Below are positions 4,375 to 7,692 of a stretch of 11,459 bases of DNA, in pieces. The position numbers and the translations under genes were made by a program. This DNA is from a virus (lineage: Duplodnaviria > Heunggongvirae > Uroviricota > Caudoviricetes). The notes under the pieces were generated by a model. It was not told the origin of the DNA. It made no database searches and was given only the letters and a program-made list of their open reading frames with translations. The stretch covers positions 1 to 11,459 of the IMG/VR virus record IMGVR_UViG_2690316286_000019; one strand, 5' to 3'. Positions within the stretch are counted from its first letter, which is position 1. Every line of letters begins with the position of its first letter.

Positions 4375-5472
4375 TTACACCGGAATATTCTCATCGTATC
4401 CTGCTTGTTGCGTTTCGTTTTGTGTTTGTGGATCCGGGAATGCATATTCAACGCCTTCCAGTTCAATCCATAGTGCATTACGACCAGCTTTGATTGTCGG
4501 CCAGTCCATACCTTTGATTCTTTCCCATGAGCGGGAGGTGAATGTTTTTTCCAGCAAATCAGCTTTTGCGCGTTTGGCGTCGTTACTGGTGCCCCCATGG
4601 TGCTTGTTGAACAACTCGATAATTTCATCAAGTGCGATTTCTTTTGCACGCTTTTCTTTTAGCCATGTCGGTGTACCGTCGTTGGCAAATAATTCACTGT
4701 TATCCCGTGAGGTATCGATGCCGAGGTGTTCACCTCCCAGGTTAAGAAACTCGATATGAGGAAGAAAGTTTTTAAATGTTGGGTTTGAAAATACCTGTCC
4801 ATCAATACGGGTGGAGCGATCTTTTAGTATTCTGGCGGTGCGCCACACCTGACCGGTTTCTATGTTCATTTGCTTCTCCATCTGGATCAGGATGGAGGGT
4901 TCATAACCGGTTTCTGTTTCTGCTTTCATTTTTATACCGGTTTTTGCCAACTGGCGTTTGCCATCATCACCTTCGAAAAAGTCATACTCATATCCTGCAC
5001 GCCCGCACATAATAATGTGCGCCTGACTGTTAACAAATCGATCGGTAAAGCGTCGCCACTCCTGTTTGAGCCACGCCCAGTCTGAAAATTCCAGTCCTCG
5101 TTTACGGTTTCGGCGTCTGGCATACTCGTCGCATAATCCGGTCCAGAAGTGACTGATGGAGTCGATGATCATTACGGAACCGCTGCTTTCCGCTTCATTA
5201 ATGGCTTCAAGCAGATCAACAAACGAGCGGGTTTTTGCCGTAAATAATTCGATATTTTCCGCATCAAAGCGGGGTTTAACCCAGTCAGAGCCTGTTTCTG
5301 TGTCCAGAAACATTACCGGGCGGTTACCAGCTTCAATTCCCCGTTGCCGCATAAGCATTACCAGACCAATAGCCAGTTCGCTTGCTGTGTAGGTTTTGCC
5401 GTCGCCAGCAAACCCCATAATTCCTGCTTTTAGATAGGCCTGTGTGTTTATTGCTCGTTGAAAAAGCGCCAT
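4375..5472 (-). CDS. RecA-like/AAA-type ATPase, Sak4-like (AAA_24-like); candidate phage recombination or accessory ATPase
   Basis: 365-aa ORF. Walker A GFAGDGKT near the N-terminus; Walker B-like hydrophobic stretch ending in aspartate (SVMIIDSISHFW). GGAGG Shine-Dalgarno about 10 nt upstream of the ATG. Family assignment is by motif pattern only. Confidence 0.7.
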   Translation of the reverse strand: MALFQRAINTQAYLKAGIMGFAGDGKTYTASELAIGLVMLMRQRGIEAGNRPVMFLDTETGSDWVKPRFDAENIELFTAKTRSFVDLLEAINEAESSGSVMIIDSISHFWTGLCDEYARRRNRKRGLEFSDWAWLKQEWRRFTDRFVNSQAHIIMCGRAGYEYDFFEGDDGKRQLAKTGIKMKAETETGYEPSILIQMEKQMNIETGQVWRTARILKDRSTRIDGQVFSNPTFKNFLPHIEFLNLGGEHLGIDTSRDNSELFANDGTPTWLKEKRAKEIALDEIIELFNKHHGGTSNDAKRAKADLLEKTFTSRSWERIKGMDWPTIKAGRNALWIELEGVEYAFPDPQTQNETQQAGYDENIPV

Positions 5473-5477
5473 AGATT

Positions 5478-5777
5478 TTAGTCCTCCAAATCAATATCAA
5501 CCTGGTGGTGGGCAATGGTTTCAGCCATGTACCGGATGTGTTCTGCCATGCGCTCCTGAAACTCAACATCATCATCAAATGCGTGGCTGATTGCCTGTTT
5601 ATTGGCACCGTGGCGTTGCAAATGGTCGATGCAGAGCGATTCAAACAGGTGCTGAGGCAGACCTTTTTCCAGGTCGTCCGCCAGTTCCGTTTCTTTTTCT
5701 TCACGAACGATCTGCTGGTAGTGGCGAGCCCATGCCATTTCTTCAATACGATCAAAAATCGGGTAAGCGCTCATCAC
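5478..5777 (-). CDS. Small strongly acidic hypothetical protein (99 aa); candidate DNA mimic or nuclease inhibitor
   Basis: [43 protein letters not shown]...DIDLED with roughly 23 Asp+Glu against 9 Lys+Arg. Its start overlaps the upstream gene by 26 nt and its stop lies 5 nt from the ATPase start. Confidence 0.55.
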
Positions 5778-7692
5778 TGGTCACTCCAAAATTTTCAAGC
5801 TTGTTGGCAATCATCATTGCGATGTCAGGGATTGCAGGCGCATAGGCTATGCACGCAGGATTCGCACATAAACCGTAAACCGCCGCAATCAACACCTGTT
5901 TTTTCCAGTTGAGTTCATCTTCGCCAGTTTCATTATTGCTATCATTATGCTGATCGCTGCCAGCGTTCTCCGGTAACAAATCATCAGCTTTTTCCGTTTT
6001 CTTCGGCTCTTCTTCCTGTGCTTCATCTGGTTTTTTTTCGTCAAAAGTTTCCTGATAAGTTGCGTCTCCCATCACCGCGCCACAGTCAGGGCAGTTATCC
6101 TCGCCAGTCTGATTGCAGGGTGTTCCCTCCTCCGGTTCGCTGTTCTGGTGCTGTTTATCTTCAGTCTGTCGCACTTTATTTTCCGTTTTTTTGACTTCAT
6201 TTGAGGAGATATGATGACCGGGAATCCATTTCGGATCATTCGGGTCGCTAATCCCTTCAACAAATTCTCCGCGAGAGGCAGCCAGTAATTTGTCTGCATC
6301 GACAGGATTTTTGGGCGGAATGTTTTTCCGGGCTTCATGGAGTTCTGCCCGCAGTTCCTGATATTTCTCATCAACAGAATTTACCTGTGACTGAGCATCC
6401 AGCGGCTGCGTGTCCTGATGATGTTCAGTTGCATCCGGTTCCACTGTTTCAGCCGTTGCCTGTTCATCTGCCATTGCGCAAGATGGTTGCGGTTTTTCTT
6501 CATCATCCTGTTTTCCTTCTTCTGTTACACGCTGCGGCATCGGGGCAGAGGAGCGACCGCAGGCAATATCCACGATTTCCGGATCAGGGTTGGCATGATC
6601 GGTTTCAGTCAGTACCTTGTTCAGATATTCAGTGACGTGCGCGGGGATGACCTCGATCCCAATTGGTGCTTCTTTTACGGACGCAACCACGATGGCGCGG
6701 GAATAATCCAGCCCGCCAGGCATGGTGATGAATTTGTCGCGGAAAACAGAAAAGGGCGGTTTATTTTCAGCGATAATTTCCTCAATGCGTTTAGCGTGTG
6801 CCGGATGAAGGTTATAGATGTCCAGATCCATTGAACGGGCCAGTACGCCAGTGGCTACGTCGCGCGCCAGTGACGTCAGATCGTGTACGAAACCTTCGCC
6901 GCGATCGGTGAGGTTTCCGCCGCCAGCATTAGCACCGGAAGCCGTGCGAGTGATACGCGAAACACGATTTCCTTTCATCCACTCTTTTGTCAGCAGACCG
7001 CGATCGGTGTAGTTGGCATCCAGATATGCTTCGAAAAAAGCAGTCATCAGTCCCAGATTTGAATTGCCAGGATTAGGGAAAACTTTGTCAGTATCACGCA
7101 CGAGTTTGTGGAGGTCGCGAATCTCCAGCGGGTCGAGCAGACTGGTTTTATGCGAAACAGCCAGAGCAGTAACAGCCGGTAGTTCTTCATCCCGAGCAAT
7201 GTGTAATGCCTGGAGTTCGTCGCGTGAAACGTGCGTTACCGGTTTTTCGCTGCCGTGTTGCGCAAGCCAACGAATGGGCAGTTCCTGACCGGAAACTGGC
7301 AGGAGCATGTTCTCCTCAATTTCTGTCATGTCTTCGCCGTTGACGTTGGTATTGTCAGTGCTGGCTGGTTTGTCCTGAACAGAGGGAGAAGATGCGATAA
7401 ATACCATTGTGATGCCATCTTCCCCGCCTTTTTCGTAACGGTTGCAGAATTCCGTATCAAACACGCCTTCTGGTGGGAGGTCACCAACAACGGGCAAATT
7501 GACGCGAACAGGTTTTTTAAAGTCATCTTCATCGTAGCCAGCATCGTCAATCGCAACAGCACCACGGGAGATGGCAATGGATAATTTTTTCGCTTCAGCC
7601 CAGTAAAAACCGCCTTTAATACCGAGGCGTTTTCTTACTTTGTCATTTTTTGCTTCGTAATACAGTGGGTAAACTTGTTTATCGGTGCTCAT
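5752..7692 (-). CDS. RecE N-terminal-region-like protein with acidic Cys-containing central/C-terminal region and no exonuclease domain
   Basis: 646-aa ORF with a GAGGT Shine-Dalgarno upstream. Long stretches ([17 protein letters not shown]..., [13 protein letters not shown]..., [25 protein letters not shown]..., [19 protein letters not shown]) match my recollection of the N-terminal and central region of Rac prophage RecE (exodeoxyribonuclease VIII). After about ...SDxxxETGEDE the sequence diverges and stops about 40 aa later, so the RecE C-terminal nuclease domain is absent. Confidence 0.6.

Follow-up and report, generated by a model that had tools for sequence, protein, structure and literature searches.

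Gam, a RecE-like protein without its nuclease domain and a RecA-fold ATPase: a probable mosaic recombination module in a Rac/lambda-like prophage

The window analysed here is a Shigella/enteroinvasive Escherichia coli (EIEC)-type chromosome segment of 11,459 nucleotides (IMG/VR record IMGVR_UViG_2690316286_000019, positions 1 to 11,459). At positions 4375-7692 it carries three minus-strand genes encoding a RecE-N-like protein, a small acidic Gam protein and a RecA-fold ATPase. The trio is a patchwork of separable phage recombination parts and not a new three-gene system. It probably serves as the recombination (Rec) module of the early-left operon in a Rac/lambda-like prophage, assembled from cassettes, in which Gam would counter RecBCD, the ATPase would act in annealing or recombination and RecE-N would be an accessory. 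An earlier note on this DNA could not put a name to the combination; it can be described as an anti-RecBCD protein (Gam), a Sak4-superfamily ATPase (PF13479, PMC8093625) and a RecE relative that fits the description of 'RecE-2'.

Gene layout

The module consists of the following features.

5752-7692, minus strand: RecE-N-like gene, 646 amino acids
5752-5918, minus strand: part coding for the hydrophobic C-terminal tail of RecE-N, its last 23-26 nucleotides within gam
5478-5777, minus strand: gam, 99 amino acids from a GTG start or 98 from an ATG at 5774
4375-5472, minus strand: gene of a long-form AAA_24 ATPase of RecA/Rad51 fold, 365 amino acids (RecA-like core, helical domain and acidic tail)
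4378-4407, minus strand: part coding for the acidic C-terminal tip of the ATPase (...QQAGYDENIPV), which resembles the tip of single-stranded DNA-binding protein (SSB)
4348-5475: ATPase cassette in place of bet-exo-ralR, delimited by blastn breakpoints against the sister prophage L002

The overlap between the RecE-N gene and gam measures 26 nucleotides with the GTG start or 23 with the ATG, and a gap of 5 nucleotides (5473-5477) separates gam from the ATPase gene. In an identical prophage the Prokaryotic Genome Annotation Pipeline (PGAP) starts gam at the ATG (5774 in the window), the codon that corresponds to Met1 of lambda GamS in the alignment. Shine-Dalgarno-like GGAG/GAGG motifs lie 8-9 nucleotides upstream of all three starts, which is consistent with translational coupling. 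A scan for promoters and terminators gave no enrichment and nothing informative within the module.

The Pfam scores of RecE-N (125.8 bits), Gam (186.8) and the ATPase (52.5) all exceed their cut-offs of 25-27, and the ratio of nonsynonymous to synonymous substitution rates (dN/dS) indicates purifying selection on Gam (about 0.1) and on RecE-N (0.27-0.34), as does the low nonsynonymous rate of the ATPase beside saturated synonymous sites. The family matches together with this selection support the three open reading frames (ORFs) as real genes. Positions 4086-8803 form one unbroken block with 99.15% identity to a prophage of E. coli FDAARGOS_943 (L001), so the single N bases found elsewhere in the window leave the trio untouched.

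The recombination slot and its contents

The trio sits between the Rha/YdaE genes and DUF1187-xis-int. Three sister prophages have this backbone in common, with Rha/YdaE upstream and DUF1187-xis-int downstream, and differ only in the Rec slot. In L012 the slot holds full-length RecE, RecT and RalR; in L002 it holds RecE-N, Gam, Bet, Exo and RalR; in L001, as in the window, it holds RecE-N, Gam and the ATPase. DUF1187 is present with all three cassette variants. L001 and L012 also have the same yebY attachment site and int/xis, and L002 is integrated beside ttcA, with intR/xisR.

The blastn breakpoints coincide with gene borders. Against L002, homology is confined to 3852-4347 and 5476-7722, which means that 4348-5475, exactly the ATPase gene, replaces bet-exo-ralR. 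Homology to L012 resumes at 5919, and hence the RecE-N tail, gam and the ATPase gene together stand where L012 has the RecE nuclease domain, RecT and RalR. Much of the description in the earlier note agrees with these comparisons. The three packed minus-strand genes, with the 26-nucleotide overlap of the GTG start and the 5-nucleotide gap, run from the Rha side towards xis-int as it had them, and the sister prophages confirm that this is the lambdoid slot for recombination and host-nuclease-inhibitor genes. Its statements that of RecE only the non-catalytic part remains in the first protein, that the third is a Walker-type RecA-like ATPase and that no exonuclease or classical annealase is present also hold, the window containing neither an exonuclease nor a Rad52-type annealase. 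It erred in taking the module to stand in place of exo-bet-gam: gam itself is there, and only exo-bet has been replaced.

The context of the genes was surveyed over about a dozen independent lineages, and the single-protein scan comprised 11 loci. The complete trio occurs only as copies at least 98% identical, in 10 of 5426 complete E. coli genomes and in Shigella; co-occurrence across independent lineages was not found in the survey. The ATPase gene is present in 10 of the 5426 genomes (H142-H151) at an identity of at least 99.8%, at 1-4 places per genome, the multiple copies being those of one prophage early region in EIEC-like strains. The joint between the RecE-N tail and gam is found in 24 of the 5426. 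Elsewhere the parts are recombined. Shigella phages 75/02 Stx and POCJ13 have the arrangement RecE-N(tail)-Gam-Bet-Exo, as do phiSTEC1589-Stx1c and PhiR5_2. A further combination, Kil-Gam-ATPase, lacks RecE-N and is carried by the ultraviolet-induced Cronobacter phage phiES15, by Salmonella prophages and by Atlantibacter. ATPase orthologues that are 62-76% identical and have no Gam are found in Pseudomonas, Achromobacter, Pelomonas, Candidimonas, Lautropia, Aquabacterium and several metagenome-assembled genomes. Since the trio is known only as near-identical copies while its parts are recombined elsewhere, it is best seen as a mosaic fixed in one lineage and not as a co-evolving system. The earlier note had treated the three genes as a distinct set and had itself named routine separate occurrence as what would speak against that, and separate occurrence is what the survey shows.

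No SSB gene is found in the window or in the enterobacterial ATPase loci. In Achromobacter (L006-L008) an SSB gene begins at the ATPase stop codon, so that the beta-proteobacterial orthologues do sit in a cassette of the Sak4-SSB type, a kind of module that the earlier note had likewise named as speaking against its reading. Bet, Exo, RecT, the RecE nuclease domain and HK620-type Sak4, SSB or Abc2 are absent from the flanks of all 26 ATPase-bearing loci (0/26); the lack of Bet, Exo, RecT, RecE nuclease and HK620-type Sak4 there fits an ATPase that occupies the recombinase slot.

In other loci the ATPase gene is frequently followed by one for an orphan DNA methyltransferase of the Dam, C5 or N6/N4 type, in one case preceded by an SNF2-type helicase, or by a Lar-like gene for restriction alleviation (loci L018 7089-9385; L005 3094-3807; L026 6271-6813; L029 6600-7028). 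Such neighbours hint at an anti-restriction neighbourhood in early operons.

The Gam protein

The acidic protein of 98/99 amino acids (isoelectric point 4.74) is, as judged by homology, lambda Gam, an orthologue of GamS. It matches PF06064 with E=8.1e-56 and 186.8 bits (cut-off 25) over profile positions 1-97 of 98, it matches phrog_259 ('gam-like host nuclease inhibitor'), and its gene is 87.5% identical in nucleotides to gam of lambda. The alignment with the solved GamS chains 5MBV_A and 2UUZ_A is collinear over residues 1-97 (phmmer, E=2.5e-50). By homology to the solved Gam-RecBCD complex, the protein would plug the DNA-binding channel of RecBCD and thereby protect linear phage DNA ends.

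Chi sites (GCTGGTGG) are present on neither strand of the 11.5-kb window, which is too short for their absence to be meaningful. Such an absence fits the rarity of Chi reported for phages with a gene against RecBCD (PMC12315714).

The ATPase

The third protein is an ATPase with the RecA/Rad51 core fold and Walker A and B motifs. It matches PF13479 (AAA_24) with 52.5 bits against a gathering threshold of 27. Among the PHROGs, phrog_1366 ('unknown function', E=1.3e-79) is its top match and phrog_124 ('Sak4-like ssDNA annealing protein', E=9.4e-9) comes second. Sak4 of HK620 scores lower on the same models (PF13479, 30.0 bits; phrog_124, E=1.9e-5). AAA_24 has been equated with Sak4, a family of annealases resembling Rad51 (PMC8093625). 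Annealing by Sak4 depends on ATP and is stimulated by the C-terminal tip of SSB, and for the HK620 protein this stimulation requires the last six residues of its SSB (PMC5928155); Sak4 also assembles into filaments (PMC11846896).

The AlphaFold2 model, built with 106 homologues, is very confident (predicted local distance difference test score, pLDDT, 94.6). The protein has three parts, namely a RecA-like core at about residues 1-230, a conserved helical domain at about residues 233-355 and a disordered acidic tail. In the core the Walker A residues G20, G25 and K26 are invariant among homologues and D104 of Walker B is nearly so. The family counts 501 clusters (50% identity) at E<=1e-30, and the helical domain is conserved across it among the matches listed, which mostly span about residues 1-340. 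A phmmer search of the PDB with the protein returned nothing useful; with the family profile, borderline P-loop matches to SRP54 (2.5e-4), RadA (4.5e-3) and Sak4 8rc5 (7e-2) were obtained.

The final 20 or so residues have a pLDDT of 59-64, which marks them as flexible, and close with YDENIPV, an acidic tip of the form D-E-x-I-P-x. Of 117 close homologues, 32 have a motif of the form [DE][DEN][IVLM]P in their last 20 residues; shuffled sequences would give 1.7, and none of 2020 internal control windows contains it. More distant homologues end in DADIPF, DDDDVPF, NDDIPF or DPIPF, and ends of the DDIPF type are the canonical C-terminal tip of SSB (DDDIPF; compare the Achromobacter prophage SSB, ...MDDDIPF). 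A different ending, -AA, is seen in 43 of the 117 close homologues, mostly non-enteric, and resembles a C-terminal degron of the ssrA/ClpX type. Between Escherichia and Cronobacter, Salmonella or Atlantibacter the ATPase is 84-87% identical, compared with 39-67% for the adjacent Gam; the nonsynonymous rate (dN) is 0.09-0.25 with synonymous sites saturated. The strong constraint, the helical domain and the SSB-like tip are features for which a plain 'Sak4-like annealase' label leaves no account.

Several observations weigh against an annealing role for the ATPase and against the functional reading of the module built on it. The similarity to HK620 Sak4 is not significant (BLAST E=0.11; hhalign probability 10%; family profile against 8rc5, E=0.07), and in fold the protein resembles Sak4 no more closely than it does RecA or the Rad51 paralogues, the latter being mediators and not annealases. 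Sak4 has been restricted to proteins of less than 290 amino acids without an additional domain (Lopes et al. 2010, PMC2896510), a limit that the 365-residue ATPase exceeds. The activity proposed for this subfamily draws on fold, family and slot, and PHROGs labels the subfamily 'unknown function'. The window has no phage SSB, whereas HK620 Sak4 needs its SSB for good activity. Finally, the prophage has decayed, with an IS1 element, a frameshift in a neighbouring gene and an inserted ipaH, so current use of the module in the host is uncertain, all three ORFs being intact nonetheless.

There is some room for a tentative, less likely alternative in which the ATPase is a mediator resembling the Rad51 paralogues, or a fork-remodelling factor, that works with host RecA and SSB, for instance as a loader or stabiliser of RecA or of restart proteins on phage DNA, its tail competing for or recruiting SSB-interacting host proteins. 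The conserved SSB-tip-like acidic tail and the SSB gene directly downstream in Achromobacter are in line with such a role, and the higher identity of the ATPase than of its neighbour Gam suggests contact with a conserved host partner. On the other hand, the ATPase shares its slot with the Bet/RecT annealases and is mutually exclusive with them, and the characterised members of PF13479 anneal DNA (PMC5928155). A more speculative proposal, which we regard as somewhat doubtful, is that the phrog_1366 ATPases form a distinct, widespread and unusually conserved family that is not simply Sak4. Here the SSB-tip mimic and the helical domain would tap the host SSB interactome, through recruitment of RecJ, RecQ, ExoI or PriA or through displacement of SSB, which would explain how a pair of Gam and ATPase can manage without a nuclease and an SSB of the phage's own; RecE-N would be a membrane- or assembly-anchored scaffold for whichever recombinase follows gam.

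A counter-defence module is an unlikely explanation. Gam would again block RecBCD, and the ATPase and RecE-N would counter restriction or recombinase-sensing abortive-infection systems. Gam is indeed anti-RecBCD, the orphan methyltransferases, Lar-like protein and SNF2-type helicase with a methylase are often neighbours of the ATPase elsewhere, and some distant AAA_24 phage proteins bear the label 'DarB-like antirestriction'. However, early-left operons are mixed bags and the neighbourhood is weak evidence, while the 'DarB-like' names are pipeline labels on distant proteins (30-35% identity, over the P-loop half only). PADLOC gives no match among six proteins, and the ATPase has the fold of a recombinase core, which is not among the known anti-defence folds.

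The RecE-N protein

By alignment the first protein is RecE residues 1 to about 594, with the PD-(D/E)XK nuclease domain replaced by a hydrophobic tail of about 50 amino acids. It matches PF06630 (125.8 bits), NF007259 over positions 1-596 of 877 (1064 bits, below the equivalog cut-off of 1269) and phrog_607 over positions 1-622 of 883. Over the N-terminal 594 or so residues it is 83% identical to the 1028-residue full-length RecE of the sister prophage L012, and in the DNA, homology with full-length recE goes no further than 5919. A phmmer search of the PDB yields no chain at E<=1, although the RecE nuclease domain is solved, and the nuclease domain of L012 used as a tblastn query has no match in the window. 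No recT lies directly downstream, where gam and the ATPase gene are found, nor is there a RecT in the window. The RecE N-terminal domain is of unknown function, yet it boosts linear-linear recombination (reviews, PMC11611040).

The tail reaches a peak Kyte-Doolittle mean over 19 residues of 1.72 at residue 600, and the protein ends in ...DERLPDF. It is common to nuclease-less versions of the protein, such as those of E. coli L002 (657 amino acids) and Shigella phage 75/02 Stx (682 amino acids, 60% identical overall). These versions are only 56-60% identical overall, yet the tail is conserved: its dN/dS is 0.10-0.12, against about 0.8, a near-neutral value, in the acidic linker upstream. The tail is therefore a selected element and not read-through junk. 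It could be a membrane anchor or an element of assembly or oligomerisation. With the 55-residue tail as query only Escherichia/Shigella fragments annotated 'exodeoxyribonuclease VIII (partial)' are retrieved, and no donor protein was found.

Other RecE and RecE-N proteins contain a zinc-ribbon-like CxxC-x7-CxxC motif. One of its cysteines is lost in the window/EIEC RecE-N (about 6090-6140, residues 520-540 or so) through a 9-nucleotide deletion and a divergent patch. The idea that the linker at about residues 490-530 is a compensated frameshift was rejected, the DNA alignment showing a divergent patch and the 9-nucleotide deletion.

The reading of the module as evolutionary debris, in which RecE-N would be a truncated recE pseudogene left by the recombination of a gam cassette into recE, and a dead prophage would simply have kept its genes so far, is very improbable: PGAP flags the identical gene of L001 as 'incomplete; missing C-terminus', the recombination joint does lie inside recE at 5919, the window RecE-N is short of one cysteine and the prophage has IS1, the frameshifted neighbour and the ipaH insertion, but the tail is conserved between versions of low overall identity, the same RecE-N architecture recurs in the complete genomes of the phages 75/02 Stx, POCJ13, phiSTEC1589-Stx1c and PhiR5_2, none of the three ORFs is disrupted and purifying selection on the ATPase is very strong.

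Proposed mode of action and significance

If the trio is a recombination module, as seems probable, transcription from pL would lead to RecE-N, Gam and the ATPase through coupled translation. With the DNA ends shielded by Gam, the ATPase would most likely contribute ATP-dependent binding of single-stranded DNA, oligomerisation and strand annealing or recombination-dependent replication, as its fold, family and slot suggest. The module brings neither a nuclease nor an SSB, so that for resection and for SSB the ATPase would draw on the host. More speculatively, its acidic tail may dock onto sites that bind the SSB tip, on host proteins or on the ATPase itself, or it may regulate the ATPase. RecE-N would be an accessory, perhaps a scaffold or localisation factor. 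It is not an obligate partner of the ATPase, since it travels with gam in Bet/Exo prophages and Stx phages and is absent from other Gam-ATPase phages.

The trio as such is one more combination in the known lambdoid Rec repertoire, one of its genes being plain lambda gam. The ATPase represents a large, strongly conserved and experimentally untouched long-form branch of the Sak4/AAA_24 superfamily, and in prophages of Enterobacteriaceae, Pseudomonas and Burkholderiales no other recombination protein could be recognised in the flanks examined. If the ATPase proves to be an efficient nuclease-independent recombinase, it could be useful for recombineering in several proteobacterial groups, and it would extend knowledge of the coupling between RecA-fold 'mini-recombinases' and SSB. 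The selected hydrophobic tail on a nuclease-less RecE touches the old question of what the N-terminal 600 residues of RecE do.

Other features of the window

The remaining features lie outside the module.

1-342: end of yebY
521-1765, minus strand: truncated ipaH (LRR_TTSS and partial NEL)
2504-3580: prophage integrase
4136-4348, minus strand: DUF1187 small protein (PF06688, E=2.2e-36), part of the conserved backbone
9936-10633: IS1

The ipaH gene encodes a type III effector of the IpaH type (LRR_TTSS, LRR and the first half of NEL) and stands between yebY and the integrase gene; the segment 570-2341 that carries it is absent from the otherwise identical L001. A second excisionase-like gene (DUF1233, phrog_539) at 3839-4060 adjoins an Exc-type excisionase (3546-3842). 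Its segment is missing in L001 and has a 95.8% match to the xisR region of L002. Upstream of RecE-N, the phrog_2434 gene (7716-8061) has a 1-nucleotide insertion in an A-run near 7887, which leaves ORFs of 58 and 40 amino acids. In L001 it encodes 114 amino acids, annotated by PGAP as 'DNA breaking-rejoining protein'. Around 8804 some 200 bp of the Rha gene are present twice, giving the overlapping partial Rha ORFs 8386-9069 and 8795-9427. On the far side of the Rha/Ash region lies the IS1 element (InsA and transposase InsB), with a gap of 21 N after it. The N bases at 614, 3849 and 8804 and the run 10639-10659 are at or near homology switches (569/2342, 3848/3852, 8803/8805 and 10661), which suggests a scaffolded or patched assembly.

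Comparison with known systems

The Sak4 proteins of HK620 and phage 52A (8rc5) belong to the same Pfam family as the ATPase and are 'core-only', with 219-245 amino acids against 365. HK620 has the gene order Sak4-SSB-Abc2, likewise in the early-left Rec position and beside an anti-RecBCD gene. The window ATPase differs from HK620 Sak4 in its own SSB-tip-like tail, its extra helical domain and its separate PHROG (phrog_1366), and in enterobacteria there is no SSB gene beside it. Gp65 of mycobacteriophage cluster F combines AAA_24 with a RecA/RadA domain, and cluster F 'AAA-ATPase' genes are about 31% identical to the ATPase over residues 4-191; Gp65 is reported to be an oligomeric DNA-dependent AAA ATPase (PMC10194130). 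The P-loop core alone is held in common, whereas host phylum, C-terminal domain and tail differ.

Lambda Gam (PF06064; 2UUZ, 5MBV) is equal in length to the Gam of the window and is likewise encoded directly upstream of a recombinase gene. In the window the start of gam overlaps the RecE-N gene upstream, whereas lambda gam follows kil. Rac RecE (exonuclease VIII) has its nuclease domain at about residues 564-866; RecE-N lacks this domain and has no RecT partner. Nuclease-less 'RecE-2' proteins have been described in lambdoid Rec modules, with roles unknown (Zheng, Casjens, Davidson, Amundsen & Smith 2025, PMC12315714). By that description, on which the comparison rests, RecE-N is likewise without a nuclease domain and inside a Rec module, but Zheng et al. 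term RecE-2 'distantly related' to RecE, whereas the RecE-N of the window is closely related to it.

Lambdoid Rec modules are combinatorial (PMC12315714). If the ATPase anneals DNA, the trio has the same inventory as the P22-type module, namely an anti-RecBCD protein and a strand-annealing protein with no nuclease and no SSB, a class that accounts for 46 of 314 phages of an Enterobacteriales panel (Table 1, PMC12315714). Compared with that type, the window would have Gam for Abc2, a RecA-fold ATPase for Erf and RecE-N as an extra gene.

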